A stretch of DNA of 60,457 nt from a virus (IMGVR_UViG_3300046747_000764:1-60457), one strand, 5' to 3'; shown: positions 23,638-47,759, numbered from the stretch's first letter. Translations and numbers: made by a program. Notes: generated by a model not told the origin, from the letters alone.

Positions 23638-23654
23638 AGACTGTGCGCTCCTAA

Positions 23655-25253
23655 TTATTGCTTGCCGGTCGGGGCCGAGCCGCCGTTATTCGACGGCCCG
23701 GGCCCCTTCCCCGGCACTCCCGCGCCATTGGCACTGCCGGGCTGTACCGCCGGCGGGGGGTTCGCTGCCACCGCGCTGATAGCGGCGATGTCGGTTACCA
23801 GCACCGGTCCGGTCGTCAGATAGACCATCGGCTCGTCGCCGCCGTCGACCGGATCCAGGCCCAGCACATCGCGCGCCTCGTTCAGCGCGTAGATGCCGTC
23901 CTTGACGTATTTATCTAGTATTGTGGCCTGCGCCTCAGGATCGAGATCGCGCTGTTCGACCCAAGCGAACTCGAGATCCTTGTACCCCATTAGGTTCTGA
24001 ATCACGAGGTCGGCCAATCGCTTGACCCACGCCATAATCGGGGCCAAGCCTTCTTGCAGAGCCACCTCTTGGGCGGTCGCCGCCGTGGCCCGGTTGACCT
24101 GCTGCGTGAATGCACTCGGCGGCAACGAGAACGCATAGCACACGATGCGCGCCAGCCACTCGTCGAAGACGTCCTTATGCGGCGGCTCGGTGAACGGCTG
24201 ATATTTGGCGCCGGCAGGGCCCCAGATCAGCTGGTTCTGGCCGCTAAGACTGCCCTTGATCTTGCTGTCGAACCAGTCCTGGAATTCGGCAATCTGCGCC
24301 GGGCTCCAGCCTTCCGGAGCATTGATGACACCTTGCGGCACGTTGCCGGCAGTAAAATACAGAAGCTGCTTCGCTTGGCGGCGCAGGCCGATGTTTATGG
24401 TGGTCCAAATTTGCTCTACTGGACTCCTGCCATACGCTTTGTGAATCCTTGGGTTGCGCGGCAGATAGATCAGCTGGCCGTCGTTGAATAGAGCGTTGGT
24501 TTCGCCTTCGGCAGTGTTTACCTTATTTCCGTCCTCGAGCAGCACCCAAGGGCGACCGTGAATCACTTGCTCATAAGCCGGCGCGGGCGGCGGCGGGCGG
24601 CGACCCGTCTCATCCAAGAGCACCTTGATAGTGGCGCCGTCTATTTGATCGAGTCCGATGATCTGGCCGCCGCGGTTGCGCCGGATCTCAAGCGCCGGCG
24701 CGTCGATCACCAGCAAATCGTCGATGAGCTTGCGTAGCCACGTCGCAAAGTCGTTATCGTTATCCGGCCTGCGCCAGAATGCAGTTAATTCCTTTATCCG
24801 CCCGTCGCCCGAGCCGTCGGCCGACTCGTCGATCGGCTTGATCTGCCATTCGAGGGCTCCGATCTGGTCTTTGCGCGTCTCAATGGCCAAGCTGACTATG
24901 TCGTAGGCTTCGGCGAGCGCGCGGAGCTCGGCGAAGCCTATTGGTTCGTAGGAGCGTGGGCGGAAATTGGTATTGAAAGCGGTCGGATAATCCCAGGCGC
25001 GCACATTGTGGCGAGCGTCCGGGATTAATGGATAGTTCGGCGAGAAGGCGCCAGACGTCGGTTGAAATACCGTGTCGAATTGCTGGAGGTTACCCCGGTC
25101 GTTGCCGCCGAGGCCGGTCGGGTCGTTGCCGACCGAATAGGAATAGATCGGCGCGCCCTTCTTTGGTTCGCGCTTCGACCGGAAGAACGAGGTCAGCCAG
25201 CTGACCCGATCGGCCAGTGATGTCTGCGTGCCGCCGGGTCCGGGAGAGGGCAT
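23655..25253 (-). CDS. Phage portal protein (HK97-like family)
   Basis: LIDDLLVIDA, IDGATI, YG.SP, YF..GN.P.G.I, ICYAF..PP and LNEAR..LGL.P..GGD motifs; GGAGG RBS. Confidence 0.9.
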   Translation of the reverse strand: MPSPGPGGTQTSLADRVSWLTSFFRSKREPKKGAPIYSYSVGNDPTGLGGNDRGNLQQFDTVFQPTSGAFSPNYPLIPDARHNVRAWDYPTAFNTNFRPRSYEPIGFAELRALAEAYDIVSLAIETRKDQIGALEWQIKPIDESADGSGDGRIKELTAFWRRPDNDNDFATWLRKLIDDLLVIDAPALEIRRNRGGQIIGLDQIDGATIKVLLDETGRRPPPPAPAYEQVIHGRPWVLLEDGNKVNTAEGETNALFNDGQLIYLPRNPRIHKAYGRSPVEQIWTTINIGLRRQAKQLLYFTAGNVPQGVINAPEGWSPAQIAEFQDWFDSKIKGSLSGQNQLIWGPAGAKYQPFTEPPHKDVFDEWLARIVCYAFSLPPSAFTQQVNRATAATAQEVALQEGLAPIMAWVKRLADLVIQNLMGYKDLEFAWVEQRDLDPEAQATILDKYVKDGIYALNEARDVLGLDPVDGGDEPMVYLTTGPVLVTDIAAISAVAANPPPAVQPGSANGAGVPGKGPGPSNNGGSAPTGKQ

Positions 25254-25445
25254 TTGCCAGACTGCCTCCCGTCCCGTTGTTGAAATCGATGTGGAACGCG
25301 CTACGGGCGAAGAGAGGTAGAAACAGCCCGGGCATTTGTATTAAAAGGCGATCAAAGAGCCATCGGTCGGGCGATCGCTGGTAGCAACGAAGGACCGCGG
25401 CCGATTCCCAGAATATCCGAAGCCCGGCGACGGGCGCTGCAGGAC

Positions 25446-25640
25446 TTGGGCGACAAGGTGCGCTCGCGACGCGAGCAGCTCGGCCTCAGCCAGGTCGAAT
25501 TAGCTGATCGAATCGGGACAACTCAGTCGCGAATATCGCAGATCGAACGGGGCGCGACCATGCAGCTGAGCGTCTTGATGCTGTTCCGCATAGCGGAGGC
25601 TCTTGATCGCGAATTGTCGATTAGTCTGAGCCCGCGCTGA
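25446..25640 (+). CDS. XRE-family HTH regulator
   Basis: R..LGLSQ.ELA..IG.TQS.IS.IERG motif; true start may lie upstream. Confidence 0.8.
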   Translation: MGDKVRSRREQLGLSQVELADRIGTTQSRISQIERGATMQLSVLMLFRIAEALDRELSISLSPR

Positions 25641-25645
25641 ACCAA

Positions 25646-25685
25646 AATATTCCGCTTGACGGAATATTCCGCGTGGCGGTATAGC
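25646..25685 (+). promoter_or_regulatory. Candidate sigma70 promoter for the T4SS operon with an inverted repeat over the -35
   Basis: TTGACG (25656-61), 18 bp, TATAGC (25680-85); AATATTCCG-N5-CGGAATATT at 25646-25668. Confidence 0.5.
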
Positions 25686-25802
25686 CGCCGCGTCTGATTG
25701 GAGCCCGTACTCACATCGGGAAACCACCACTCCGCGCCGACGGCGTATTAGGGGAACGGCCGATGATTGACTGTAGCGTAAAACCGCAGTTGGCGCCTAG
25801 TG

Positions 25803-25833
25803 TTTCACGCTTTTTTCACGCTCTTTTCACTTT
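25803..25833 (+). repeat. Three TTTCAC(GC/TT)T direct repeats at 11-bp period
   Basis: Copies start at 25803, 25814 and 25825. Confidence 0.7.
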
Positions 25834-25865
25834 GTGTTGTCGGTCTCGCCTGATCAATTAGTGGC

Positions 25866-26447
25866 ATGTCTCATCGCCGCATAACTCAGCCGATTGTGGC
25901 TCTCATCGTGGCGCTATCGCCGGCGGTCGCTGTCGCCGACGAGTTCCGCGAGTTCCGCGCTAACATGGCCCGCTATGAAAGTGATGGCGGTCAGAACATC
26001 CCAAATTTTCGCTACACCGGGCCGGGCGGAAAGCACACCGCGGGCGGCGTGTGCCAAATGACGAACACGACATGGCGGCGGATCGCGCCTCTCATCGATA
26101 TCGATATCACAAAATTCGACGTAGCTGGAGCGGCCAGCGAGTTCGATCAATGGCGCGTGTGCTGGAAGCTCTGGTCGCTAGAGGGTTACAAGCCGTGGAC
26201 TTGCGACGGCTGTAATCCGAAACTGCGGAAGGCGCTGGCGGCGGCGACAGGTGATCAGAGACACGATTCGCAGCCGGTAATACCCCCGGAGGCGGTAGTG
26301 ACGGTAACCCCGCGCGCGCACGATTGGGATGTCTTCCCGGATCACGATGCGGAACGGCAGCCTTCGCAAGCGCCCGCCCCAGATGCAGCGCCACCGCAGA
26401 CCGACCAGGACGTGGTCGAGAAATCGGAGGAGGAACAGCCGCGATGA
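25866..26447 (+). CDS. Exported Rpf/SceD-like lytic transglycosylase in the VirB1 position
   Basis: Signal peptide; YESDGGQN, G..QM...TW, A.AS..DQ and G.KPW.C lysozyme-fold motifs; Pro/Gln/acidic tail. Confidence 0.7.
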   Translation: MSHRRITQPIVALIVALSPAVAVADEFREFRANMARYESDGGQNIPNFRYTGPGGKHTAGGVCQMTNTTWRRIAPLIDIDITKFDVAGAASEFDQWRVCWKLWSLEGYKPWTCDGCNPKLRKALAAATGDQRHDSQPVIPPEAVVTVTPRAHDWDVFPDHDAERQPSQAPAPDAAPPQTDQDVVEKSEEEQPR

Positions 26448-26505
26448 CGGACCCTAAGTGGTTTAAGCCGATAGTGGCCCCGGCGCTTGCCGGAGGCGGT
26501 CACTA

Positions 26506-26682
26506 ATGGAGACCCTAGAAGCGGCGCTCTCGTGGCTCACCGGATCGTTTGGCAAGGCCGCGATATACCTCATCCTGCTTGTGGGTGGTTTCGCCTGGAT
26601 TACGCACAGCCCAGTCGGTGAGACTGAACGCCCCCTCAGGAACCGCATTAAAAAGTTCTGCCGACGACTCACGGCGAAATGA
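26506..26682 (+). CDS. Short pilin paralogue without a signal peptide (not in ORF track)
   Basis: METLEAALSWLTGSFGKAAIYLILLVGGFAW... versus VirB2 ILTWLTGPFGKAAVAVVVG; GGAGG RBS. Confidence 0.65.
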   Translation: METLEAALSWLTGSFGKAAIYLILLVGGFAWITHSPVGETERPLRNRIKKFCRRLTAK

Positions 26683-26797
26683 ATGACCACAGCACGGCTC
26701 AGGCTAGCTACCGAAAACCGGGTTCTCGCTCCCCGGCTGCCGTGCTGCTCCTCGAGCGAGTTGCGCGCCGCGAGCGGGGGCGCAAGGCCAACCATCG

Positions 26798-27094
26798 ATG
26801 CAACAATGGTCCATACGAGTCGCTGTGTTCGTCTTTGTCGGGCTCCTGCTTTACTCACCCTATTCGGCCTACGCGCAACAGGTCGATCCCACTACGATCG
26901 TCACCGCAATTCTGACGTGGCTCACAGGACCGTTCGGCAAAGCCGCGGTTGCGGTGGTCGTCGGCATCTCGGCGTTCGCCTGCATGCTCGGGCATCATCC
27001 TTATGCAGCCTTGGGATCGTTGGTGCTGGGCTGCTTCCTATTGTTCGGATCGCAATTTTTTGTCGACACATTTGTCGGCGGCGGCGCCGGATAA
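26798..27094 (+). CDS. virB2: VirB2/TrbC pilin
   Basis: Signal peptide ending AYA, WLTGP.G motif, two hydrophobic helices, operon position. Confidence 0.85.
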   Translation: MQQWSIRVAVFVFVGLLLYSPYSAYAQQVDPTTIVTAILTWLTGPFGKAAVAVVVGISAFACMLGHHPYAALGSLVLGCFLLFGSQFFVDTFVGGGAG

Positions 27095-27113
27095 ACAGTA
27101 GGCAGCAAGCGCT

Positions 27114-27380
27114 ATGACCGCCAAACGACCATCAATATGGCGTTCGGCCCTCTTTTATCTGGGTCCTCCGGCAGGTGTTGTCGCAGCGTGGCTGGGAGTA
27201 ATACAGCCCGCGCTTTTTCGGACCCCCCAGTCGGACACAGCAAAAGCTGATCCGGCTCCTGAGGCCGCCCCGACCGGAGAGGTGGTCGGGGCGGCTTCTC
27301 CTTACGAGACGCTCCTCGGCCAGTGGTGCCAGGTGAACGCGTGGTGCCGCGAGCAGCGACCGGCCAGGCAGAATCGGTAG
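27114..27380 (+). CDS. Small membrane-anchored protein
   Basis: Single hydrophobic segment; lies between virB2 and virB3. Confidence 0.55.
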   Translation: MTAKRPSIWRSALFYLGPPAGVVAAWLGVIQPALFRTPQSDTAKADPAPEAAPTGEVVGAASPYETLLGQWCQVNAWCREQRPARQNR

Positions 27381-27386
27381 AATTAA

Positions 27387-27827
27387 ATGGCTATAGGACG
27401 ACAAACTCTAAACGTAGATTTCCCGTGGTTCGCGCGGCGCTTCATTCGTAATACGCTGGGTCAGACCGCGCGCACGATCACGCAAGCGGCGAAGGCAGCG
27501 CGGAGCACTATCGACGAGGCGCCGCTCTTTGTGGCGGATACGCGGCCAGCGATGTTTTTCGGCGTCCCGCACCCAGCGGCCGTCCTCATAATCGCGCTAT
27601 TTGGGGAGAGCATCATCTTCGTTGGGCCGATCTATGCGTTCTGGGTGATCGTCCCGTGGATTGCTCTCCGCGCCCTAGTGCGGAAGGATTACAACGCCCC
27701 GCGCGCGCTTGTCCTATGGATAATGACCAAGGGCATGGCTTGGGAAAGCGCACGGTGGCTTGGCAGCTCGCCTTCCCCGTTTCCGGCCCGGCCCGGCAAG
27801 TATCCTCGAGGAATCTGGTCGCAATAG
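27387..27827 (+). CDS. virB3: VirB3
   Basis: PLFVA.TRPAM.FGVP motif, hydrophobic core, W..SS.SP. Confidence 0.85.
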   Translation: MAIGRQTLNVDFPWFARRFIRNTLGQTARTITQAAKAARSTIDEAPLFVADTRPAMFFGVPHPAAVLIIALFGESIIFVGPIYAFWVIVPWIALRALVRKDYNAPRALVLWIMTKGMAWESARWLGSSPSPFPARPGKYPRGIWSQ

Positions 27828-27832
27828 AAGCC

Positions 27833-27979
27833 ATGACAAATCCAGCTATCGCGCTAGGACATGTGATTCCCTGGGTATTGGTAGCCTGCGCTGTAGCCGC
27901 GGTCGGCGGCATAGCGTGGAACTGGTGGGGACGCAGAAATATCGCTGCCGTCTTTGAATGGTTTAGTAACAGAGGATGA
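27833..27979 (+). CDS. Small membrane protein
   Basis: MTNPAIALGHVIPWVLVACAVAAVGGIAW; ATGA coupling to next ORF. Confidence 0.5.
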   Translation: MTNPAIALGHVIPWVLVACAVAAVGGIAWNWWGRRNIAAVFEWFSNRG

Positions 27980-28182
27980 ATCAACGAATGCCGAAGATAA
28001 CATCTAAACGCCGCGTGCTTGCTCATTACGGCTTCGAGAACGGCGGCTCTGTCGAGATCGCCTGCTCGGGCGATGTGGACACGGCCACAGCTCTTGAAAC
28101 CGCCGCCTCACTTCTCGCGATGAAGCAGAAAGAGCTGGGCGGCAGAGCACGGGCACCGCAGCCGCTAAAGGTGGCGGGATAA
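27976..28182 (+). CDS. Hypothetical protein
   Basis: 68-aa coupled ORF. Confidence 0.5.
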   Translation: MNQRMPKITSKRRVLAHYGFENGGSVEIACSGDVDTATALETAASLLAMKQKELGGRARAPQPLKVAG

Positions 28183-28192
28183 GGGGCGTAAA

Positions 28193-28408
28193 ATGATCTT
28201 GCGGGACCCGCCATACTTTCTGGCTGAGTTAGAGTCCCACAGGCTACGGCGCAAAACGGTCAGGATGGCGCGCAACCGAGCCTTTATAGAGCGCTGCGAG
28301 AACCTCACCGGCAAGAAGTTTGAGACGTACGCCGAGGCAATAGAGGCGTGGGATGAGGCTGGCTATTTCCTGCCGTGGCGTCGGTCGACAAATGCTAAGA
28401 AACGCTAA
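28193..28408 (+). CDS. Hypothetical protein
   Basis: 71-aa ORF with AAGGGG RBS. Confidence 0.5.
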   Translation: MILRDPPYFLAELESHRLRRKTVRMARNRAFIERCENLTGKKFETYAEAIEAWDEAGYFLPWRRSTNAKKR

Positions 28409-28634
28409 GTTAATCGCGGAGCGGTCCCGCGCCATAATCTGGTTTTTGGTCCGGGGATTGATAGAAGGTGCCGCCGCCTTGTTACTGATGTACGGCGGAT
28501 TGTGGAGTTTGCAATATCCGTTTCCCGACAATAATTGGTCATTGTTCGGAATCTGGTGCGTCATTTTCATTATAATAGATTTAACAGTGTCCACTGTGAG
28601 GGATCGTCGCCACAAGTCTCGCCAGCCGAGGTAG
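28392..28634 (+). CDS. Small two-TM membrane protein
   Basis: Two hydrophobic segments; immediately before virB4. Confidence 0.5.
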   Translation: MLRNAKLIAERSRAIIWFLVRGLIEGAAALLLMYGGLWSLQYPFPDNNWSLFGIWCVIFIIIDLTVSTVRDRRHKSRQPR

Positions 28635-28636
28635 CC

Positions 28637-31039
28637 ATGAGCAGTCTGGCCGAATTACTGGAGCGAACCTCCGCGCACTATCTGCCGTATCTCGGACATA
28701 GCCCGAATCCGCGCACCGTCCTGATGGAGGACGGCTCCTTCTTGAGCATGGCCCGGATCAGGGGCGTACCGCATGAGCTCGCCAGCGCTAGCGAGCGCAA
28801 CGCGGCCGGCAAGTTCCTCAATTCACTGTGGCGGCAGATAGCCGACGACAGCATCACGCTGGGTCTGCATCTGGTGCGGTACCGAAGACAGGACCAGCTC
28901 CCGGTGCCGGTGTTCTCGAACAAGTTCGCGAAGAAATTTGACGAAGCGCATCGGCGGTACATTCTGGACGCGTTGTTCGCGAACGTATGGTTTCTGAGCA
29001 TCATCGCGAGCCCGCGGGTGCCGATGGGCAATCAAAAGCAGAGCGGTCGCGAGATGGCCAGGTTCATGGCGCGGTTGCGGAAGAGGAAGGAGCCGAACGA
29101 TCCGTATCGAGTTCAGATGGTCGATGATCTATGGACCACCATCTCACGCACGCTAGAGGGTTACGATCTTCGTCGCCTCGGCTTGCGTGAGCAGAGCGGT
29201 CTCTTTTTTAGCGAGATCGCCGAGGCGCTACGGTTGATCCTTTATTGCCGGTATCTCCCGGTCGGGTTGACCGATGGTCCGCTCGGCAGCGCGGTCTATA
29301 CCGACCGAGCGGTCTTTGAGCGGCGGCACTATCGGCTACTCCATCCCGGCGGCGTCCGCTACGGCGCGCTGTTTGGCTTGCGCGAGTACATGGCGAGCAC
29401 ACGACCGGGTCTGTTCGACGCCCTTCTCCCGCTCCGTATGCCCCTCGTGCTGTCGCAGAGCTTCGGCTATCTGCCGCGCCAGACCGCGATTCAACGGCTG
29501 GCGAGGAAGCAGAACCAGATGGTCGGATCGTCCGACCGGGCCTACGCGCAAATCGCCGATATGGACAATGCGCTAAGTGAAGTAGCCGGCGGAGAGGTGG
29601 CCAGAGGGTTCCACCATCTTTCGCTCGCGATCTATGGCGACACCTATACAGAGCTAGAGCAGAATTCCGGAGAGGCGCAGAGCGCTCTCGCGCAATCAGG
29701 CGCCGTCATAGCGCAAGAAAGCCTCGCGATAGAGGCCGCCTATTACGCACAGCTCCCTGGAAACTTGGAGTCGCGAGCCCGCCCCGGCGTGATCTCCACG
29801 CGAAACCTCGCCCACTTTGCCGATTTCGGATCCTTCCCAGAAGGCTCTCGCGAAGGACGCTGGGGACCAGCGATCATGCGCTTTAAGACGGTGGGGCACA
29901 CGGCTTACGACTACATCCCGCACGTCGACGACGTGGGCATGACGGCTATTTTCGGTAAAACCGGGAGCGGCAAAACGACCTGGTTAATGGCTGTCCTTGC
30001 CATGTTCGATCAGTGCATCGGACCGGACGGCGTCATCTTCTTCTTTGATCGCGATCGCGGCGGCGAGTTGCTGGTTCGGGCAGTTGGAGGAACCTACATC
30101 GAGATTCGCGCTGGCGAGCCGAGCGGTCTGGTGCCGCTAAGAGGTTTGCAAAATACGCCGGCCGATCGAGAGTTCTTTGAGCGGTGGGTCAAGGCACTCA
30201 TCATGAGCGACGATCACGGCCCTCTACCGCCGCAAGATGACGCGCGCATTTCTCGCGGCACGAAGGCGACCATGCGGATGCCCGTGGAGCTTCGAACCTT
30301 AGAGGGGTTTCGGCAATTTCTTGGATGGCGGGACCCGCAGGGGGCGGGGGCCAGGCTAGAGCGATGGTGCCGCGGCGGCGCGCTTGGCTGGGCCTTCGAT
30401 GGCGACGAAGATCTGGTGGCCATCCAGGCTCGTATGATAGCAGGGATCCGCATATTCGGCTTTGATCTGACTTCGATTCTAGACAATGACGAGGTGATCG
30501 CCCCAGCCGCTCAATACCTGCTATATCGGATTGGCGCGACAATAGACGGTCGCCGAGCGGTTGTTTCGCTGGACGAAGCCCAGGCGTATCTTGCTCATCC
30601 GGGCTTCCAGGAAATGACGGAGAACTTTCTCCGGCGTGGCCGCAAGAACAACACCGTCGTTTTCATCAGCACTCAGCAGCCGGAAGATCTGCTCGGCGAC
30701 GGCGACACGTTTGGCACGACCATCATCGAGCAATGCCTTACCAAGATCTCCTTCCGGAACGACACGGCCAATGAGGAAGTGTGGCGCGGGAAAATGAAAT
30801 ACACGGAAGGCGAATTCCGCGCCATATCCGAAGACATGCTGCCTGGGGCGCGCCAATGCCTTATAAAACGGCCAGACGGCTCGGTGATTTTAGACTATGA
30901 TCTCACGCCAATGCGCAAGTTCGTAGCCGTGTTGTCGGGGCGGCAAAACACGGTAAGATACGCAGAGAAGCTTCGCCAGCAAACGACCGATTGGGTAGAG
31001 CCGTTTATGGAAACCTACGAGACAGCAGCGAGGGATTGA
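28637..31039 (+). CDS. virB4: VirB4 ATPase
   Basis: Walker A GKTGSGKT, FFDRDRG, Walker B SLDEA, R.GRK.N, TQ motifs; start re-called at MSSLAELL. Confidence 0.95.
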   Translation: MSSLAELLERTSAHYLPYLGHSPNPRTVLMEDGSFLSMARIRGVPHELASASERNAAGKFLNSLWRQIADDSITLGLHLVRYRRQDQLPVPVFSNKFAKKFDEAHRRYILDALFANVWFLSIIASPRVPMGNQKQSGREMARFMARLRKRKEPNDPYRVQMVDDLWTTISRTLEGYDLRRLGLREQSGLFFSEIAEALRLILYCRYLPVGLTDGPLGSAVYTDRAVFERRHYRLLHPGGVRYGALFGLREYMASTRPGLFDALLPLRMPLVLSQSFGYLPRQTAIQRLARKQNQMVGSSDRAYAQIADMDNALSEVAGGEVARGFHHLSLAIYGDTYTELEQNSGEAQSALAQSGAVIAQESLAIEAAYYAQLPGNLESRARPGVISTRNLAHFADFGSFPEGSREGRWGPAIMRFKTVGHTAYDYIPHVDDVGMTAIFGKTGSGKTTWLMAVLAMFDQCIGPDGVIFFFDRDRGGELLVRAVGGTYIEIRAGEPSGLVPLRGLQNTPADREFFERWVKALIMSDDHGPLPPQDDARISRGTKATMRMPVELRTLEGFRQFLGWRDPQGAGARLERWCRGGALGWAFDGDEDLVAIQARMIAGIRIFGFDLTSILDNDEVIAPAAQYLLYRIGATIDGRRAVVSLDEAQAYLAHPGFQEMTENFLRRGRKNNTVVFISTQQPEDLLGDGDTFGTTIIEQCLTKISFRNDTANEEVWRGKMKYTEGEFRAISEDMLPGARQCLIKRPDGSVILDYDLTPMRKFVAVLSGRQNTVRYAEKLRQQTTDWVEPFMETYETAARD

Positions 31040-31041
31040 TA

Positions 31042-31245
31042 GTGGCCAGACTACGGCAGATTATCAAAGATCTCCTCGTCGCCACAGCAGGAGTTATCCT
31101 GGTCACGTATGTTGCGACTATTATTTTTGTGGTAGTTTATGGCGTGTGGCACCGCTGGGATGCGGTGTTTTGGTCGGCTCTAATGGGCGTCATAGCGTTC
31201 GCAGGATGGTGGTTTAGACCACGGAAACGGGAGAATGGAAAATGA
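31042..31245 (+). CDS. Small two-TM membrane protein
   Basis: Hydrophobic ORF after virB4; GTG start inferred. Confidence 0.5.
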   Translation: MARLRQIIKDLLVATAGVILVTYVATIIFVVVYGVWHRWDAVFWSALMGVIAFAGWWFRPRKRENGK

Positions 31246-31457
31246 AACAGCTGATCCGATTCGCCCTCATTATTGGGATCGCGGTATTCTCGTCCCCGGC
31301 GTTTTCGGCCACGTGCTGCCAGCCAAGCAGCTACTATAACTGGGGCCGCGTCCAGCAGCAGAATCAGGCGGCTCGCCTGCGCGGAATACAGCAGCAGCAG
31401 CGCCTCTGCCGCAGCATCGCCGCTAGCGGCCGGCATGTCATGTGGAGTGGGTGCTAA
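31242..31457 (+). CDS. Small exported Cys/Gln-rich peptide
   Basis: Signal peptide ending AFSA, 4 Cys, GGAG RBS, ATGA coupling. Confidence 0.55.
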   Translation: MKQLIRFALIIGIAVFSSPAFSATCCQPSSYYNWGRVQQQNQAARLRGIQQQQRLCRSIAASGRHVMWSGC

Positions 31458-31938
31458 TGATGCCGTGGATCTTGTTTGTATCCGTCGCGATCTGCCTCTT
31501 TGGAGTGGTAGCGATGATCTTATCAGTTAGTCCGCCGTGGAGGACGATTTGGTCAGCTGTTGCCGGATCGTCGCTTGCTGTAATGGCAATTCATTTCATA
31601 CTTCAGCAGTGGTGATCGGAGCAGCGTAAAATGTTTATCGCCCGCCGCATGGGTCGCCGTCGCCGCTGGTCTATCGGCGCCAACGTCAGCTTTATGACGC
31701 TGCTGCTTTACCTCCTAATCGGCGGCCTCGTCCTCTACAGCATCGCCACCAAGGTGCAGCTATGAAAGGTGTCGTATTGTTCTTGTCGGCATATCTTGTC
31801 GGAGTGCTCTTCACGGCATTGTATTTTACCATGGCCACTCACCCGTCTGCGCTAAACTATTGTGCTGGCTCAATGATAGGCGCGCTATTGTTCTTGGCCT
31901 GCAAACGTCTGCTTCAGAGATTCAAGGTGACGCTATGA
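31457..31938 (+). CDS. Three consecutive tiny membrane ORFs (31457-31615, 31631-31765, 31762-31938), not in ORF track
   Basis: Manual translations MMPWILFV..., MFIARRMG..., MKGVVLFL...; TAATG/ATGA overlaps. Confidence 0.5.
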
Positions 31939-34485: not shown

Positions 34486-34727
34486 AAATGGAAGAGATGG
34501 CGGAAAAATTCATGCGAAAAATCCGCGGCACAGAGAATCCCATGGTCCCCTTTTGGAGCACTCTTTTATGGAGTGTGATTATTATTGCGCTCACGGTCTA
34601 TCTATCTGGGTGCTCAGCCGGGGAACCGCTGCCTCCGATAGAGGGGCCGTGGTATCAACTTAATTCGGACCGGTGGCAGCCGAACGAGGCTGAGCTTCAA
34701 CAGATAAAGGGGTTGCCAGAAAAATGA
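34482..34727 (+). CDS. virB7: VirB7 lipoprotein
   Basis: Lipobox LSGC; GP...LN..RWQP as in Agrobacterium-type VirB7; ATGA overlap with virB6. Confidence 0.75.
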   Translation: MKMEEMAEKFMRKIRGTENPMVPFWSTLLWSVIIIALTVYLSGCSAGEPLPPIEGPWYQLNSDRWQPNEAELQQIKGLPEK

Positions 34728-38936: not shown

Positions 38937-38939
38937 TAT

Positions 38940-40814: not shown

Positions 40815-40832
40815 CCCTGGCTGGAGGAAGTT

Positions 40833-41036
40833 ATGACGGATGAACACGCTACTCGCATCGCACACGCGCTTGAGAACATCGCCAGCGCGCTAGAGACCAT
40901 CGCGTTCCAGCTTAACGATGATGGAGCGATCGGCGAGGCGATCGGCAGGATCGTCGAGGTGTTCGAAGCGGTTGCGCCGGAGGGCGAGCGTAACAGTTAT
41001 CGGTATCTGAGAACGCTAGATATCGGCCGCGACTGA
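40833..41036 (+). CDS. Hypothetical protein
   Basis: GGAGGA RBS. Confidence 0.55.
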   Translation: MTDEHATRIAHALENIASALETIAFQLNDDGAIGEAIGRIVEVFEAVAPEGERNSYRYLRTLDIGRD

Positions 41037-41061
41037 AACCCCGAGGCAGGAGAAACGACCC

Positions 41062-41280
41062 ATGGCGAGGAGTAAATCAGGAGGAGCAGACCCTGTTCCG
41101 CAGGCGAGGCAAGACCTCCGCCAGACCCAGCAGACCAGGCAGGAAAGATCAGCCGCGTGGGTGCAGCAACAAGTCAACGAAGGCTACGGGATCATGCAAT
41201 CCCGCGCTGAGCAGCTCGGGCAGACGCAAGCTCCACAGCAAAACGCCACCAACCGACCACGTCAACCCCGGCAGTCATAA
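41062..41280 (+). CDS. Gln/Arg-rich small protein
   Basis: AGGAG RBS; basic C-terminus RPRQPRQS. Confidence 0.55.
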   Translation: MARSKSGGADPVPQARQDLRQTQQTRQERSAAWVQQQVNEGYGIMQSRAEQLGQTQAPQQNATNRPRQPRQS

Positions 41281-41406
41281 CCCGTACGGTTGCGCCGCTT
41301 TTGGAAAAAGCTGCAATGGAATATCAGTCCCTAAAACCGGCGTTTGGGACGGTCTCATCCGGACCAAGGCTGGCACCCTTGTTCGCGTATACGTTGGGAG
41401 GATCGG

Positions 41407-41703
41407 ATGGTGGCGCTGAAGGGTCGAGATTACGGTTGGGTGCCGTTCTTGCGTAAGGTGGAAACGACGGATGAGCTGCGGCGGGCGCTCGATGAGATGC
41501 TGGCCGAAGGAGAGAACGCCGACCTAGCGGACACGTATATTGTGCGCGTCTGTGAGGTGGCTCTCGATCCCGGGCCGAGAGAGGGCTTAGGCGACCCGGT
41601 CCTGCTGATCGATCGCTGCGTGAGCATCAGACCGATTAGGGAGCCCGTGCCGACCTGGCAGGAGATCTTACGACGTGGCGATCCGGATAGAGACGAGCGA
41701 TGA
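41407..41703 (+). CDS. Hypothetical protein
   Basis: GGAGG RBS before MVALKG. Confidence 0.5.
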   Translation: MVALKGRDYGWVPFLRKVETTDELRRALDEMLAEGENADLADTYIVRVCEVALDPGPREGLGDPVLLIDRCVSIRPIREPVPTWQEILRRGDPDRDER

Positions 41704-41876
41704 GGAAGATCATCCAGATCGCCTCCGCAGGTGACCGGCTGTTCTCTCTGTGTGACGACGGGTCCGTGTGGCAGTACCTGTGGAGCAGGGAGAATTGCCG
41801 GGGGTTTGGTTGGTGGGTGCAACTTGAGTGTGTGCCTGAGCCGCCCCAGGACGATCCGATCGCGGGGTTGATCTGA
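41700..41876 (+). CDS. Small hypothetical protein (not in ORF track)
   Basis: MRKIIQIA...LFSLCDDGSVW; ATGA overlap. Confidence 0.5.
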   Translation: MRKIIQIASAGDRLFSLCDDGSVWQYLWSRENCRGFGWWVQLECVPEPPQDDPIAGLI

Positions 41877-41896
41877 GACGCCATGGTCGTCCGGCG

Positions 41897-44800
41897 ATGA
41901 TGACGTTCCGGGCAGGCTCGGTCGGCTCGTCGACGGTCAGCTCGGCAGTCGCGGAGTACTACTTAACAGACACTGTACAATCGGAGACGATGCGGGCGGC
42001 CGAGTACTACGCGGGCCGCGAAGAACGGGCGGATAGTTTCTGGCGGGCCGAGGTGATGGACGGTCGGCTAGAGATGGGGCAACACCGGGCCGAGCTGCGA
42101 GCGGATCTATCGCCAGAGATGATCGCGCGGCTTGGCTTGAACGGGAGCATGGGGCCGGCGTTCACGCTGCCGCTGACGCAAGAGCGGGTCGCCAATCTGC
42201 TGAGCCTGAGACAGGCGGATGGAAGCGCGGTCGAGGGGCGGCAAATACACCGGGCGACGGCCGAGGGGAAGAAGCCTCCCACAGGGTTCATCGACCTGAC
42301 GTTCTCGGCGAGTAAGTCGCTCTCGGTCGCGTGGGGGTTGGCGGCCGATCCTCGCGAGCGAGAACAGCTTATCGGGATACACCGGGCGGCGGTCGAGAAG
42401 ACGATGTCCTATGTGGCGGAGGAGATTGGTTTCACCCGGCGTGGTGGATCGCGACGAAGCCGAACGGAGCCCGGTGAGATCGCGTGGCTAGGCTTCCAGC
42501 ATTACACATCGAGGCCGGTCGATAAGCAGGCCGCGGACCCGAACCTGCACACCCACGTCATCGTGTTGAATGATGTGATGACCGAGAACGGTCACATGGG
42601 CGCGATCGATCTGGCGCGGCTGAACGGTAGGATCAAAGAATTCGGCGCGGTTTACGAGGCATATGTGGGGGCCGAGGCGCGCAAGCTTGGTGTGGCGGTG
42701 CAGTTCGACGAACGCCGCGAGACGGTCCAGCTGTCGGACATCCCGGAGCACATCAACGAGGTGTTCAGCAAGCGCTCCCAGCAAGTAGAGGAGGCGGCGA
42801 AGGATCTTTCCAGCAAGATGGGGCTGGAATGGGAAACCCTGAACGAGGAGCGTCGATCCGGGATAAGCCGTAGAGCGGTAATTCTGAGCCGGCAATCGAA
42901 GGATGGCGAGAGGAACGACTTCGGTTCCTGGTCACGCCAGGCGGATGAGGCCGGCTACCGGTATGAGAGCGTGCTCGGTCGTGTCGAGACGGTAGAAGCA
43001 CCGTTGCCCATACCGGAGCCGGAGCCGATTGATGATCTGTCGAAGCAGTTGGTGGAGGCGATCACGACCGCGCTTCGGTACAGCGATCCGGAGACGCAGG
43101 CAGATCGTCTGATCTGGGAGGTTGACCAGATCATGCGGGACCACAAAGCGTCGGGCGATCCGACACCGCGCTTGGCACAGGATCTCATGCGCGGGATCAC
43201 CGCGACCCTATCGGCACAATCGGCAACGGAACCGGAGGCGCGGCTGATCGCGGCAACCGGCGAGGCGATAGAGCAGCACGCCGAACGGGGGCGGGCCAGG
43301 CAGGAGCGGATAGCAGCTGACACGGCGCGACAGCGCGCGGCCTATGAGACGGCGCTGCCGCGGCTGCAGGAAGAGTTTCGTCGGCGGTCGGTGCTCGATG
43401 GGAACGAACTCAGGCGCGTAGCGGCACAGGCCCTCGTCACGTCCGGGATCAAGGACGCTGGGCTCGACCTCGACGCAATCATGGGATTATTTCGGCGAGA
43501 CGGCGTCGATCATGAGGGCCAGAGAGCACCGTTGGTCACACAGGAGCTGAGTGTGCGCGGTGTGATGCGGGAGCGGGTTACGACCGGCCTTCACGTCGCT
43601 CAGGAGCGGGAGGTGATTCGCCTGGCCGCGGCTGCGGCCGCAGATGGGTCAGGAGCGATGTCCGAAGCGAAGATAGATCTTGCGGCCCGCGTATTCCTGT
43701 CCGCTCATCCGGAAATAGATGGAGCTGGCGAGCATTGGCAGGCTCAACGGCGGATGATGGACCACCTTGCGACCGGTGGCCGGCTTGGGGTGGTGATCGG
43801 TGTCCCCGGGTCGGGAAAGAGCTTCGCACTGTCGCCCCTGGTGCAGGCGTGGAAGGACGATGGGCGATCTATCTATGGGATCTCGCTAGCGTGGCGGCAA
43901 GCCGGCGATCTGGAAGCGGCCGGCATCACCGAGCGAGCGTCGATCGCGGCGTTCCTGAAACGGGTTGAAACGGGTCGATACGAGTTGGATCGGAACAGCG
44001 TGGTCGTGGTGGATGAGGTAGGGCTGGTCGGCTCGCGGCAGATGCTGGAGCTGCTCCGAATCCAGGAACGGACGGGAGCGCAATTTGTCATGGTCGGCGA
44101 TCCGCGGCAGGCCCAGCCGATCGAAGGCGCGGCCGGTCTCGAGCTGCTACGAGCCGCGCTAGGCGATGAGGCGATCCCGCGGTTGCTGTACTCGACCCGA
44201 CAACACAGCGAGCGCGAGCGGGAGATCGCTGCACTGTTCCGGCGGGGCCAGGCAGCGGAGGCGCTGGAGATGAAACAGGAGGACGGCACGGCGTTCCTGG
44301 TGCCGGGCGGTCGGGAGGCGACGGTCGTTCGAGTAGCGGAGCTGTGGCGCGAGCGCATGGAGGCGAATCGGGGCACGCGGGATTTTACGTTGAGCGTGTC
44401 GACGCCGACGAATGCCGACGCGAGGGAGATCGGCGCGGCGATTCGAGTCGAGCTGCGGCGGGCCGGTCAGCTTGGAGCGGATGTACAGACCATGCGGGCG
44501 ATCGACCGCACCGGGGAGACCTACGACATATCCCTGGCGATCGGCGAGCGCCTGCGGCTGTTCGACCGAGTGTGGGATCGCGCCCTGCATCAGGCGATAG
44601 CGAACAATGGCGACGTGGTCGAGCTGCGTTCGCTACGGCCGGACGGGATGGTGGTGCGCAACGCCAGCGGGACGGAAGGTCTGGTGGAGTGGGACAAGAT
44701 CAGGACGCACCCTGAGGCCCCTGTGAGGCTCGCCCATGGGTATGCTTTGACGGTGGACACCGCACAAGGGAGCACCGCGACCGAGCACATCCACGCGCTT

Positions 44801-45037
44801 CCCTCGGGCTCCCAGGATACGCATGGGTTCAAGGCCTACGTCGCGGCCACACGCCACCGAGAGCAAAACTGGATCGTGATCGATGAGGCATCGGAGCGGG
44901 GCCAACTCGACGAACGGCGCATGATCGGTCATCACGTCGAAGTGCAAGCGCCGGATATCTGGCAGAACGTGGCGAAGAATGTCGCGCGGCAGCCGGTCAA
45001 GGCGCCGGCGATCTCGGTGTTGCGCAAGAGCGCATGA
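41897..45037 (+). CDS. MOB-F (TrwC/TraI-like) relaxase-helicase
   Basis: Two AEYY motifs (Y21/22, Y37/38), DLTFSA.KS.S, H.TSR...DP.LHTH (3H motif), helicase GVPGSGKS, VVDE, GDP.Q, GYA.T...AQG. Confidence 0.93.
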   Translation: MMTFRAGSVGSSTVSSAVAEYYLTDTVQSETMRAAEYYAGREERADSFWRAEVMDGRLEMGQHRAELRADLSPEMIARLGLNGSMGPAFTLPLTQERVANLLSLRQADGSAVEGRQIHRATAEGKKPPTGFIDLTFSASKSLSVAWGLAADPREREQLIGIHRAAVEKTMSYVAEEIGFTRRGGSRRSRTEPGEIAWLGFQHYTSRPVDKQAADPNLHTHVIVLNDVMTENGHMGAIDLARLNGRIKEFGAVYEAYVGAEARKLGVAVQFDERRETVQLSDIPEHINEVFSKRSQQVEEAAKDLSSKMGLEWETLNEERRSGISRRAVILSRQSKDGERNDFGSWSRQADEAGYRYESVLGRVETVEAPLPIPEPEPIDDLSKQLVEAITTALRYSDPETQADRLIWEVDQIMRDHKASGDPTPRLAQDLMRGITATLSAQSATEPEARLIAATGEAIEQHAERGRARQERIAADTARQRAAYETALPRLQEEFRRRSVLDGNELRRVAAQALVTSGIKDAGLDLDAIMGLFRRDGVDHEGQRAPLVTQELSVRGVMRERVTTGLHVAQEREVIRLAAAAAADGSGAMSEAKIDLAARVFLSAHPEIDGAGEHWQAQRRMMDHLATGGRLGVVIGVPGSGKSFALSPLVQAWKDDGRSIYGISLAWRQAGDLEAAGITERASIAAFLKRVETGRYELDRNSVVVVDEVGLVGSRQMLELLRIQERTGAQFVMVGDPRQAQPIEGAAGLELLRAALGDEAIPRLLYSTRQHSEREREIAALFRRGQAAEALEMKQEDGTAFLVPGGREATVVRVAELWRERMEANRGTRDFTLSVSTPTNADAREIGAAIRVELRRAGQLGADVQTMRAIDRTGETYDISLAIGERLRLFDRVWDRALHQAIANNGDVVELRSLRPDGMVVRNASGTEGLVEWDKIRTHPEAPVRLAHGYALTVDTAQGSTATEHIHALPSGSQDTHGFKAYVAATRHREQNWIVIDEASERGQLDERRMIGHHVEVQAPDIWQNVAKNVARQPVKAPAISVLRKSA

Positions 45038-45231
45038 CGGGGAGCGTCGCTAACGTAGAAGTGGGCGGGGGCGCTCGGTAAGGTGCTAGAACACCGAGCC
45101 GAGCGCTAAAGACCGAAACCCTTTACCCCACGCGTCGGTAGCAGCTGGATAGGAAAACTGGGCCGGCTATAAGCCTACCGGCGCAGACCTCTGTGAAGGC
45201 GCTCGGATTATAGCTCGTAGCCGGCCTTCGA

Positions 45232-45684
45232 TCAATGATCTGATTGCTCTAGCAGCGCGATGATTCGATCCAGTTTTTCCGCCTCGATGCGCGCTAACGA
45301 GATCTGAAGCTCTTCGATCTCTTCCTTGGCCCGCAGGTTGACCTCGTAATCGTGCTGCGAGTGGAACCGATCGCGGTCGGCCTGCCGGTTCTGCGCCATC
45401 AAGATCAGCGGCGCCGCGTAAAACGCCTGCAGCGAAAAGAAAAGGTTCAGCAACACAAAGGGATAGAGATCCCACTGATACCGCCACCCCACGACGTTCA
45501 AGATCACCCAGGCAATCGTGATCCCGGTTTGTATGAGGATAAACGGCCAGGAGCCGATCGCCGCGGCGACGATATCGGCGATGTGCGCTGACCGCTGCAG
45601 CTCGTCGAGGTGCCGCTGATGCCAGTGCCAATCCATCGCCACAACGGCTTTATCTCGCGCCCCGCTGTTGCCGTTCGTATTCAA
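45232..45684 (-). CDS. DUF1003 membrane protein
   Basis: GSW.FI, D.YPF.LLNL..S..A...APLILM.QNRQ...DR, DY.VNL.A. Confidence 0.88.
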   Translation of the reverse strand: MNTNGNSGARDKAVVAMDWHWHQRHLDELQRSAHIADIVAAAIGSWPFILIQTGITIAWVILNVVGWRYQWDLYPFVLLNLFFSLQAFYAAPLILMAQNRQADRDRFHSQHDYEVNLRAKEEIEELQISLARIEAEKLDRIIALLEQSDH

Positions 45685-45686
45685 GG

Positions 45687-45914
45687 CTAGCTCGAAGAGG
45701 CGCCCTTGCGGCGCTCACGAGCGAGGATGCGGCTAACCTGGCTCTGGTGAATGCCGAAGATCTGGCCGATCTGCTCTTGTGTATGGTTCCCTTCCGCGTG
45801 GATTCGTCTGATGTCTGAGATGTCGCTATCCGTCATCTCGGGGACATGCGGATTAAAGAAAGACCAGACCCTGGATAGGAAGCTCACGGCTGTTTCCTCT
45901 GCTGGTTTTCCCAC
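45687..45914 (-). CDS. Small HTH protein
   Basis: TQEQIGQIFGIHQSQVSRI helix-turn-helix. Confidence 0.6.
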   Translation of the reverse strand: MGKPAEETAVSFLSRVWSFFNPHVPEMTDSDISDIRRIHAEGNHTQEQIGQIFGIHQSQVSRILARERRKGASSS

Positions 45915-47329
45915 TCGACAGAACCTGGTGCGTAGAGCGGGGTCGGTGCGGGCGGCACATTCGCCTCGGCCAACTTGCGGGCCTGCTCGCGGTAGAGCTC
46001 GAAGATCCCGGAATTTGACATCGGCTCGACGAGGAGGTCAGTTAGGGCCCAAATCAAACTGTCCGCATTATCGGGTGACCGATCGCCCAAATATCCCGCG
46101 GTCGAGAAATTGAGCATCTGATCCTCGAGCTGAGGAAATTGCCCAGCGTGCCGTACCTGGTCTTTGTGCCAGACGCCGTCTCGCTCGTAGCCGTAGAGAG
46201 CCGAGACCGGTTCGGCGCGGATGGCCTTGCCGCGCGACGCGGTCACCACCTGCACCGGCACATTGGGGTCGACCGTGTGCAGGAGGGCGCGCACCATATC
46301 GCCGCCGTAGTTCTGCTCAGCGACGATGCGGTCGGCTTTGAACTCTTTATAGGCGGTGACGGCGACGCGCGCCCAGCCTTCAGGGGCCAGGTTGCACGTC
46401 CGATCGGCCAGCACATACGCCATGTTGTCCGTGGCTAAGCCAACGACCACGATGCCGATGTTGTCGGATCTCTCGTCTTCGTCACCCCGGGTGCCCGATG
46501 GGTCGACGGCGACGACAACTCGCTTGAGCGTGGCCGGCACATCTTCTGGCAGGCAACGCGCGTGCTCGATGGACTCGAATGTCCAGAGCGCCCCGTCGAC
46601 TTCGGTTTGATAAGCGCCAACGAAGAACCGTTTGCGTTGTCGCTCTGGCAACGCATCGAGTTCCGCAAGCATTTCGGACGTGAGATTCTCGGCGTTGTCA
46701 CCGGGATTGATGTAATCGTAGCGATACTGTTCTGGATTGCTGGTCGGTTGCAGCGTGACTGGATCGCGCCCCTGCACAAACCGGACATGGCTCCAATGGC
46801 GAGTGCCAACCGGGTTGAGGTCGTAATAGGCGCGCTGAATTAAGGCGGGGTGTTTCTCTGCTAACCGGGTTAATGCGATCGTGAGTGATGAGTATGGGAT
46901 CTGAGAGCACTCGTTGAAATACAACGTGCTGAACTCTTGCCCCAAGATTTTCTCGACGCGTTCCTTCTCGTCTAATCCGCTTATCCAGATCTGCGATCGG
47001 CCTGGGTAGACCTCGACATAGCCGTCGCTACGCTTGTCGATGAGCGTGGCGTCGGGATAGCATAACCGCAGCGCTTTAGGCAGCGTGTCGAGCCAAATCG
47101 AGGCTCTTGCAGCGTTGGCGCGGAATCGCAGGATGGCGTGGCGAGAACCCGGCGCTAAAAGCGCCCTGGTTAGAACGGCATAGCAAAAGAGGTAAGTTTT
47201 CCCTGATCGCGCGCCGCCGTACAACAGGGTGTGGCGCTGAGGACCGGCCAACAAATGAAGCGCCGCGAGTTGTTTGGGATTAGAGGCGCGAGAAGGATCT
47301 TTGGCAGATTCAAAGCCGAGCGGAATCAC
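45884..47329 (-). CDS. terL: Terminase large subunit
   Basis: Walker A GGARSGKT, Walker B LYFNE, NP, nuclease VAVDPS, E.NYGG, K..RA.PV, PD.ADS; GTG start inferred. Confidence 0.93.
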   Translation of the reverse strand: MIPLGFESAKDPSRASNPKQLAALHLLAGPQRHTLLYGGARSGKTYLFCYAVLTRALLAPGSRHAILRFRANAARASIWLDTLPKALRLCYPDATLIDKRSDGYVEVYPGRSQIWISGLDEKERVEKILGQEFSTLYFNECSQIPYSSLTIALTRLAEKHPALIQRAYYDLNPVGTRHWSHVRFVQGRDPVTLQPTSNPEQYRYDYINPGDNAENLTSEMLAELDALPERQRKRFFVGAYQTEVDGALWTFESIEHARCLPEDVPATLKRVVVAVDPSGTRGDEDERSDNIGIVVVGLATDNMAYVLADRTCNLAPEGWARVAVTAYKEFKADRIVAEQNYGGDMVRALLHTVDPNVPVQVVTASRGKAIRAEPVSALYGYERDGVWHKDQVRHAGQFPQLEDQMLNFSTAGYLGDRSPDNADSLIWALTDLLVEPMSNSGIFELYREQARKLAEANVPPAPTPLYAPGSVEWENQQRKQP

Positions 47330-47759
47330 CGGTGATTGCGATGACGATGGGCTCGCCGCCTTTCTTGCCTTCATGTTGGTGGTCGACGGTCTCCTTCCAG
47401 CCCATCCGCGTCTTTGCCCAGAACATCGCCAGAGAGCCGCGCGTGGGTTCGTGCGTTACAGAGGTCACGCCGGGTATCGGCATTCCTATGATCGTCGCGA
47501 ACATAAACTGAGCGACACGGAAGTTCGCCTCGATCTCGGCCCGCGCGAGCTCGTCCTTGAAGTGCTTGCGCAGCGTGGGATGCGAAATGCCGATCTGCCC
47601 CGCGATGCTGTCTTGCGGCGTGCCGCAGCCCGCCATCTCCTTAACGAGGCGGCGCTGATTATCAGTTGGTGCGAACGGGGGTTGGCCGCGGGCCTTACGC
47701 TGCGGCGCGGTCGTGTCGAGCGGTGGCGATTTCGTCGAAGGCTTCTCCTGACCAGCCAT
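47310..47759 (-). CDS. terS: Terminase small subunit (putative)
   Basis: HTH (IA..IGIS..TLRKHF), FW.KTR.GWKE; directly upstream of terL. Confidence 0.75.
   Translation of the reverse strand: MAGQEKPSTKSPPLDTTAPQRKARGQPPFAPTDNQRRLVKEMAGCGTPQDSIAGQIGISHPTLRKHFKDELARAEIEANFRVAQFMFATIIGMPIPGVTSVTHEPTRGSLAMFWAKTRMGWKETVDHQHEGKKGGEPIVIAITGDSARL

Follow-up and report, generated by a model that had tools for sequence, protein, structure and literature searches.

A predicted conjugation module embedded between the terminase and portal genes of a temperate-phage-like element from soil

Introduction

How does what appears to be an entire conjugation system come to lie between the terminase and portal genes of a tailed temperate phage, and what might it do there? 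The question is raised by the IMG/VR virus record IMGVR_UViG_3300046747_000764:1-60457, the whole of which, 60457 bases classed as linear, was analyzed here and is referred to as the window. The record is a fragment, with a completeness estimated by CheckV at 26%. An earlier note on this DNA had drawn attention to the arrangement, and several of its claims are taken up below. On the basis of the present analysis we favor, with modest confidence, the view that a temperate phage of a soil alphaproteobacterium forms the backbone and that a conjugation module became stably lodged within the last codons of its terL gene, giving something akin to an ICE (integrative and conjugative element) on a phage chassis.

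Results

Architecture of the conjugation module

The identities of TerS, TerL, the portal protein, VirB3, VirB4, the VirB5-like protein, VirB6, VirB8, VirB9, VirB10, VirB11, and VirD4 were assigned with Pfam, PHROGs, and NCBIfam. Listed here are the features of the insert and of its immediate flanks, where T4SS denotes a type IV secretion system, ORF an open reading frame, HTH a helix-turn-helix motif, and pACRY03 a plasmid of Acidiphilium cryptum.

23655-25253, minus strand: portal protein, 532 residues, intact (Pfam Phage_portal, 3.5e-27; PHROG phrog_2662, 4.2e-71)
25254-25282, minus strand: remnant of the ancestral terL 3' end, 29 nt, directly upstream of the portal start and marking the left edge of the insert
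25446-25640, plus strand: XRE regulator (translation; homologues head related T4SS operons in loci L168 and L171)
25866-26447, plus strand: VirB1-slot protein (translation)
26506-26682, plus strand: pilin-like ORF of 58 residues immediately upstream of the full VirB2 gene, with ..LSWLTGSFGKAAI.. as its pilin motif
26798-27094, plus strand: VirB2 pilin (tblastn with VirB2 of pACRY03, 39% over 104 residues; translation)
between VirB2 and VirB3, plus strand: ORF of 88 residues (translation)
27387-27827, plus strand: VirB3 (Pfam VirB3, 1.5e-11)
28637-34485, plus strand: VirB4 (800 residues), small membrane ORFs, a VirB5-like protein, a secreted protein of 123 residues, and VirB6 (Pfam CagE_TrbE_VirB, 1.4e-35; PF07996 T4SS, 1e-9; TrbL, 7.7e-16)
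~34560-34727, plus strand: VirB7 lipoprotein (tblastn with the pACRY03 gene, E 4e-7; lipobox LSGC; translation)
34560-38936, plus strand: VirB7, VirB8, VirB9, VirB10, and VirB11 (Pfam VirB8, 1.3e-35; CagX, 3.2e-24; TrbI, 1.8e-45; T2SSE, 8.1e-27)
38940-40814, plus strand: VirD4-type coupling protein (Pfam PF02534 T4SS-DNA_transf, 8.3e-35; TraG-D_C, 5.5e-14; Walker A at residue 200)
40815-41896, plus strand: spacer of 1.1 kb between the VirD4 and relaxase genes, with small ORFs of no known family (no Pfam match)
41897-45037, plus strand: MOB-F relaxase with a C-terminal SF1B helicase, 1046 residues (Pfam TrwC, 4.1e-44; AAA_30, 1.9e-35; NCBIfam MobF, 167.5 bits against a cut-off of 100)
45232-45684, minus strand: DUF1003 membrane protein, 150 residues (Pfam PF06210, E 7.4e-35)
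45687-45914, minus strand: HTH protein, 75 residues, the first insert gene on the phage strand (weak Pfam HTH matches, E 4e-5 to 5e-3, all below cut-offs)
45884-47374, minus strand: TerL, the terminase large subunit (Pfam Terminase_6C/Terminase_3; PHROG phrog_979, E 2.6e-54; Walker A at residue 53)
47310-47759, minus strand: TerS, the terminase small subunit (PHROG phrog_309, E 1.1e-13)

As can be seen, the insert, which extends from approximately 25283 to 45904, separates the terminase genes (45884-47759, minus strand) from the portal gene, two hallmarks of a tailed temperate phage being present in the window. This separation, pointed out in the earlier note, was borne out by the family searches, the coordinates, and a comparison with the related locus L005. 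The plus-strand genes run in the order XRE regulator, VirB1-slot protein, VirB2 to VirB11, VirD4, and the relaxase-helicase, and every frame of the conjugation genes is open. The genes of the insert that lie on the phage (minus) strand encode the small HTH protein and the DUF1003 protein and directly follow terL, with the GTG start of the former overlapping the terL stop codon. When these two genes are counted, the block measures 20.6 kb rather than the ~19 kb given in the note.

The catalytic components of the module appear sound. VirB4 matches PF03135 with an E value of 1.4e-35, contains the Walker A sequence GKTGSGKT, and occurs in its 800-residue form in the protein collection. Walker A motifs are likewise found in VirB11, VirD4, and the helicase of the relaxase, in the latter at residue 635. 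The relaxase displays YY and H..TSR...LHTH, which we take to be the motifs of the MOB-F class. Indeed, the Pfam, NCBIfam, and tblastn searches, combined with the reading of motifs, uphold the original description of virB2-virB11, virD4, and a MOB-F relaxase-helicase with open frames and intact ATPase and HUH motifs. The accessory set characteristic of mating-pair formation type T (MPF-T), namely VirB2, B3, B5, B6, B7, B8, B9, B10, and B11, is present throughout. Judged by its gene content, this is an MPF-T module, equipped with VirD4 and a relaxase of the MOB-F class, that carries a predicted complete set for self-transfer. A relaxase-helicase and a coupling protein beside a T4SS are the signature of conjugative DNA transfer.

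The VirB1 slot is a different matter. The note had placed a transglycosylase there, yet the protein matches no transglycosylase family in Pfam, NCBIfam, or a PDB sequence search, and a 40-residue C-terminal tail is the only part that it has in common with VirB1 of the sister T4SS clade. The 58-residue pilin-like ORF may be the remnant of a second pilin copy. A 144-residue ORF at 26683-27117 was rejected as a spurious frame overlying VirB2.

ORF scans of the insert, and searches of its six frames for gene families, yielded no tyrosine or serine recombinase, transposase, or ParA-type gene, a result in keeping with the note, which saw no integrase, transposase, or Rep/Par gene at the edges of the block. 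By its position, the VirD4-relaxase spacer (40815-41896) is probably where the origin of transfer (oriT) is located. A plasmid nic motif matched no more than at chance level, with eight matches versus 4.6 expected and none of them in the spacer.

Two stretches of ~0.8 kb on the plus strand, 27828-28636 between VirB3 and VirB4 and 31040-31859 between VirB4 and VirB5, hold small ORFs, several of which are hydrophobic. In L164, which is among the nearest T4SS relatives (82% identity in VirB4), the same gaps measure ~80 and ~160 bp, and a short VirB3-VirB4 gap is also observed in L165, L166, and L172. Ten small ORFs had no Pfam match, and PDB sequence searches with five unexplained proteins gave nothing below an E value of 0.2.

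The point of insertion

In L005, whose TerL and portal are 64% and 73% identical to those of the window, 15 nt lie between the terL stop codon and the portal ATG, and the portal N-terminus, MPSPGPGG, is the same in both. The portal lies about 0.2 kb or less from the TerL match in eight of 80 viral loci holding TerL relatives, and homologues of the insert occur in none of the 80. A contig from sequencing run X4, one of four described below, tracks the window from the portal gene to position 25282 and then continues for 26 letters, the reverse complement of which encodes a TerL C-terminus, APGSVEWEN. This insert-free contig shows two synonymous differences from the terL of the window. It follows that a close relative without the insert coexists, that 25254-25282 is what remains of the old terL end, and that the insert spans approximately 25283 to 45904. 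TerL of the window is intact, its final codons being contributed by the right end of the insert, as judged by comparison of its C-terminus with that of L005.

The sole repeat at the edges is an imperfect 9-bp direct repeat (7/9) that encodes Gln-Gln-Arg at both ends and could be due to chance. Comparison of the edges with each other or with the VirD4-relaxase spacer revealed nothing beyond 10-nt chance matches. The statement in the note that the block has no terminal direct repeat is qualified by this imperfect repeat alone, and its concern that att or insertion-sequence (IS) ends might betray an independently inserted plasmid or ICE was not borne out, since no att site, IS end, or recombinase was found in the block. 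There is no break in GC content, and the profiles of third-position GC and of tetranucleotides are alike in the insert and its flanks (r 0.95-0.96). Composition was considered as a marker of origin and discarded, since unrelated alphaproteobacterial loci also score 0.91-0.96, which renders it uninformative.

In the closest IMG/VR relatives of TerL, L002:5306-5466, L003, and L006 (86%, 77%, and 66%, respectively), neither the portal gene nor the HTH gene of the window is found right after terL, and in L003 and L006 a small membrane ORF directly follows it. The differing neighbors point further to a variable site.

Independent assemblies

Logan contigs, produced by a different assembler from four runs (X2-X5) other than the likely source, were compared with the window over 23001-43000. 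Joints in which one side measured just ~20 letters were discarded as probably spurious, and uncovered bins in X3-X5 are uninformative. Runs X6-X24 contain small shares of the words, and no conclusion is based on them. The contigs that matched numbered 77 in X2, 36 in X3, 49 in X4, and 59 in X5, most of them at least 99% alike, and of 30 bins they covered 30, 24, 28, and 29, respectively. Record 18 of X4 (329 nt, 25176-25504, zero differences) bridges the portal-side junction with more than 100 letters on each side. Of the words sampled from 44500-46500, a region that encompasses the terL-side junction, a share of 0.92 occurs in run X2. The insert is real DNA and not an artefact of assembly. 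The note had named unbridged junctions as the mark of a chimera; the X4 contig, from another sample, spans the one on the portal side.

In run X5, one contig exchanges the 67 nt just upstream of the relaxase start (41829-41897) for 22 other letters. This length variant falls in the region where oriT is expected.

Relatives that carry the linkage

Three NCBI contigs, as deduced from protein-collection records of equal contig size, carry genes of the arrangement, and in two of them portal-side genes accompany those of the T4SS. A contig of 14485 bp carries the portal protein P0380 (91.7% identity), the glycosyltransferase P0138 (92.1%), VirB3 P0420, and VirB4 P0122 (89.1%). On another, of 11356 bp, VirB4 P0002 (86.2%) is accompanied by the glycosyltransferase P0393 (85.2%); in the window, the distance from the glycosyltransferase to the end of VirB4 is 9.7 kb, and the ~1.7 kb that this contig has to spare leaves little room for a different arrangement. 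The third, of 37117 bp, carries VirB4 P0003 (83.1%), VirB9, and a DUF1003 protein. It is very unlikely that equal sizes over four separate protein clusters arose by chance. In the linked relatives the portal protein, glycosyltransferase, VirB3, and VirB4 are all full-length, at a protein divergence of 8-15%. Relatives with and without the block, which the note had proposed to seek, are both at hand, the former, as deduced from contig size, in the NCBI contigs and the latter as L005 and the X4 contig.

The closest relatives of VirB4 are 89, 86, 83, and 83% identical to it, and named Acidiphilium plasmid proteins 47-48%. In a maximum-likelihood tree of 24 VirB4 sequences, that of the window groups with P0122, P0002, and P0003 in one clade (support 100/100), apart from the clade at 82-83% that comprises L164, L166, and P0004. 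Upstream of VirB1, L166 has a coupling-protein gene, and no portal gene is found there. The identities on the phage side and on the T4SS side track each other (92/92/89 and 85/86), and this, together with the single VirB4 clade, fits one acquisition followed by joint descent. That diverged relatives retain the arrangement speaks for a lasting association and against a recent accident. In a variant contig of X2, all 14 of the 14 listed differences (24318-24465) fall at third codon positions of the portal gene.

At the top of the list of TerL relatives in genomes are Alphaproteobacteria or unclassified Pseudomonadota (Xanthobacter, Methylobacterium, Hyphomicrobium, and metagenome-assembled genomes (MAGs) of Stellaceae). 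Homologues of the insert were found in 0 of 80 such genome loci. In 28 of the 80 (L114-L160; Stellaceae and other MAG chromosomes) a DUF6456 gene, a 450-residue TerL, and the portal (52-66% identity) are retained, and 2.6-6.2 kb lie between terL and portal, indicating that the lineage takes up cargo at this place. In the two loci examined, L122 and L121, the gap holds a pectate-lyase-like protein of 857-948 residues. This group of 28 could represent a prophage family of wide distribution or else an element that has been domesticated.

Other searches were negative within their scope. Megablast of the insert gave no match in plasmids or phages; the relaxase found no relatives in the viral or genome contig collections; VirB4, as a single sequence or an alignment, retrieved nothing from viral contigs; and the portal retrieved one distant locus from them. 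The VirB4 family was seen in none of five long viral relatives, and in the host genomes of TerL relatives only distant copies of VirB4 (37% identity or less) were present, in four of five. The portal was found at E 1e-100 in 0 of 401 genomes in a sample of the family of G006, which, being a sample, is no evidence of absence.

The phage backbone

The remaining features of the window are given below.

241-16442, minus strand: giant repeat proteins (no PHROG match)
16424-22526, minus strand: heptosyltransferase-like enzyme (GT9), a pair of methyltransferases, and a nucleotide-sugar epimerase, in the position directly following the portal that head genes would be expected to occupy
51104-51871, minus strand: serine recombinase of the backbone, 255 residues
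56745-57494, minus strand: phage-type replication initiator of the backbone, DUF1376/primosomal-like (Pfam DUF1376, 3.8e-11; PHROG phrog_3992, 7.9e-24, and phrog_1408)
60303-60457, minus strand: C-terminal end of a tyrosine recombinase, truncated where the contig ends on the right (PF00589 matched in a six-frame search at 60387-60449 with an E value of 0.031, which is below cut-off; translation ending in ...LGHSSVKVTEIYL)

Nearly all of the backbone genes lie on the minus strand and, read from right to left, follow the order tyrosine recombinase end, RusA, DUF1376/primosomal-type initiator, serine recombinase, HTH regulator, TerS, TerL, the insert, and portal. The sequence ...LGHSSVKVTEIYL... 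is presumably the usual C-terminal box of tyrosine recombinases with the catalytic tyrosine. The partial gene is a candidate backbone integrase, and it probably continues just beyond the window. Within the initiator gene, iterons at 57166-57315 comprise at least six overlapping repeat copies with an 11-bp period, which is the layout of a phage origin situated in its initiator gene. The serine recombinase is a conserved backbone gene; five relatives (L003, L007, L111, L112, and L140) have homologues with 48-56% identity at a distance of 1-3 kb upstream of terL. Scans for tRNAs and with Rfam gave no match.

The glycosyltransferase is located 1.1 kb downstream of the portal gene and is linked to it in relatives by equal contig sizes of 14485 and 6898 bp, the latter being that of a JGI contig with portal P0378. 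Among the giant proteins, one of 3246 residues is built from repeats of ~108 residues and has a weak GH5/collagen-binding-like stretch, and another of 1498 residues (24% alanine, 18% glycine) shows a 60-residue period. Signal peptides are found on the 3246-residue protein and on smaller neighbors of 224 and 448 residues. The giant proteins could be tail fibers or cargo adhesins.

Discussion

The proposal set out at the beginning, namely stable acquisition of the module by a temperate phage, derives from the precision of the insertion, its reality as DNA, the conserved linkage, the single VirB4 clade, the completeness of the gene set, and the lack of a recombinase or ParA gene in the insert. 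The module would rely on the backbone for integration, excision, and replication, and would in return provide the backbone with a conjugative route. The backbone integrase would excise the element, the relaxase would then nick oriT, probably within 40815-41896, one strand would pass out of the cell by way of the coupling protein and T4SS, and the integrase would insert the element in the recipient. The suggestion in the earlier note that the module leans on the phage integrase and initiator is consistent with the lack of a recombinase and replicon in the insert, the initiator with its iterons, and the partial tyrosine integrase.

Several observations weigh against this proposal. Transfer, excision, and nicking are predicted from gene content, and a search for oriT in the spacer gave just short inverted repeats, one of them of 12 nt at 41677-41723. 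At both edges, scans for promoters and terminators gave about as much as shuffled sequence would. Searches with Pfam, PHROGs, and PDB sequences recognized no gene for a capsid, protease, or tail protein in the 23.6 kb that lie downstream of the portal; what lies to the left of the portal is, in order, a coiled-coil protein, the GT9 glycosyltransferase, the two methyltransferases, the epimerase, an endonuclease VII-like protein, a small head protein (phrog_240), and the giant repeat proteins. The proteins downstream of the portal in L005 and L122 are likewise without PHROG matches, and since the head genes of relatives are thus invisible to PHROGs and the record is a fragment, the missing capsid and tail genes constitute weak evidence. 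The module is antisense within the presumed late operon, and the additional 20.6 kb may exceed the capacity of the capsid; its position and its size could both hamper the production of virions. The terL-side junction is backed by a share of words and not by a spanning contig, the runs compared are soil and rhizosphere metagenomes of similar date that may belong to one sampling campaign, and linkage in the NCBI contigs was taken from equal contig sizes, not read from DNA. Finally, the coexistence of a close insert-free relative in X4 means that the insert is dispensable for the backbone.

A bolder version of the proposal is put forward only tentatively, as it seems to us somewhat doubtful. Here the temperate-phage lineage would have domesticated the whole conjugation system and would either retain both routes, as virions or as single-stranded DNA passed through the T4SS, or be midway from phage to ICE, with the phage integrase and initiator serving as housekeeping functions and terminase and portal still under selection. 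Relaxases of this class can catalyze site-specific integration, and the relaxase might itself have mediated capture of the module.

That the module is instead a passenger strikes us as unlikely. In this explanation, a piece of a conjugative plasmid or ICE sits in a prophage, disrupts its late operon, overloads its genome, and cripples the phage, while the module serves at most itself or decays. Such an event would agree with the existence of close relatives without the insert, with the antisense placement in the packaging operon, with capsid and tail genes that escape recognition, with the terL-portal gap being a variable cargo site in the wider lineage (28 of 80 genome loci with 2.6-6.2 kb), and with the nested ICE-in-phage structures already described. 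The module, however, lacks its own integrase, att sites, and replicon and is therefore not an autonomous ICE. Furthermore, the arrangement persists over 8-15% protein divergence with all four proteins full-length, the phage-linked VirB4 sequences constitute one clade, and the portal differences in the variant contig are at third codon positions in 14 of 14 cases.

Less probable still is a role as host cargo, with the T4SS serving as a lysogenic-conversion trait (delivery of effectors, release or uptake of DNA, or mobilization of other DNA) and not moving the phage genome. The two extra ~0.8-kb blocks of small ORFs, absent from the nearest relatives, the replaced domain in the VirB1 slot, and an oriT that was not found would suit this role. 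Against it, the T4SS is adjoined by a coupling protein and by a relaxase-helicase whose catalytic motifs are intact, and the gene order matches that of a plasmid typed as conjugative, MPF_T/MOBF. A chimeric assembly of a phage contig and a plasmid contig, to which a single metagenomic record of low depth and a terL-side junction without aligned contigs might point, is highly improbable and already largely refuted, for two false joins would both have had to strike one 15-nt intergenic space while leaving both genes whole, a contig from another assembler and another sample spans the portal-side junction, X2 contains 0.92 of the words over the other, and the same linkage is seen in diverged relatives.

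How the proposed stable acquisition of a module by a phage relates to known types of element can be judged from the features at hand. With respect to ICEs, the insert contains no integrase of its own, and a tyrosine-recombinase end (E 0.031, below cut-off) and a serine recombinase are found in the backbone. As for att repeats, the ends of the insert have in common the imperfect 9-bp repeat and nothing longer than 10 nt, and the termini of the complete element fall beyond the record. With respect to phage-plasmids, there is no ParA-type match in six frames, the initiator is of the phage type, and the end of an integrase is present.

Phage-ICE tandems and nested ICE::Phage forms have been described across seven phyla (Huang et al., Sci Adv 2026, PMC13651849). 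According to that paper, ICEs inserted into phage genomes are listed, phage integrases drive excision of the composites, and the composites are viewed as site-specific accretions of separate phages and ICEs and not as hybrids. As in those nested forms, prophage and conjugative module are parts of one physical unit in the window and could potentially be transferred together. The nesting is thus present, but a recombinase and att sites belonging to the module are not. In contrast to the composites as described there, the module of the window carries no recombinase or att repeats, lies exactly between terL and portal, and has diverged jointly with the phage genes. The host here is, moreover, an uncultured soil alphaproteobacterium.

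The element p1002-1 of Escherichia coli, a conjugative phage-plasmid, unites phage genes and a conjugation system in one replicon (SegMantX preprint, 10.1101/2025.03.14.643293), and the preprint presents it as two entire replicons that fused, one a conjugative plasmid and the other a phage-plasmid. The window, in contrast, has no plasmid replicon or partition gene, and a transfer module alone joined an apparently integrative phage. The pACRY03 plasmid (typed conjugative, MPF_T, MOBF) has the same order of HTH regulator, VirB1 slot, VirB2-B11, and VirD4, with identities of 25-57% (VirB4 48%, VirB11 57%). Its operon is flanked by RepC, ParAB, and toxin-antitoxin genes, none of which accompany the module of the window, whereas the latter has its relaxase directly downstream and the two extra blocks of small ORFs.

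Plasmids derived from P1 gained mob/oriT, possibly after outgrowing the capsid (Pfeifer and Rocha, Nat Commun 2024, PMC10879196). They resemble the window in that a phage-derived element changes or adds a mode of transfer through conjugation functions. According to that article, they acquired only a relaxase or oriT, are mobilizable in trans, and lost phage genes; the window, on the other hand, gained a full self-transfer set, with terminase and portal intact. The prophage Phi1207.3 of Streptococcus pyogenes, a Gram-positive host, is reported to move by conjugal transfer (PMC4260502), and the opening of the abstract mentions no T4SS or relaxase module. In the literature seen, which comprised parts of the papers cited, we found no description of an integrase-less, full conjugation module between terL and portal that is inherited along a phage lineage, although supplementary tables may list one. 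Nested and fused composites of phages and conjugative elements are already in print, and the arrangement in the window adds a variant to them.

Phages and conjugative elements are usually regarded as worlds apart that differ in host range, costs, and barriers. The gene content of the window suggests that its element may spread by mating, be it in addition to virus particles or in their place. Relatives with 8-15% protein divergence preserve the linkage, and this makes the question a testable one. Classifiers that force a binary choice between virus and plasmid will misfile elements of this type. If the proposal is true, the locus would provide a natural example of one kind of mobile element turning into another, and an element that owns both routes could cross barriers, such as the loss of a receptor or the need for cell contact, that stop either one alone.

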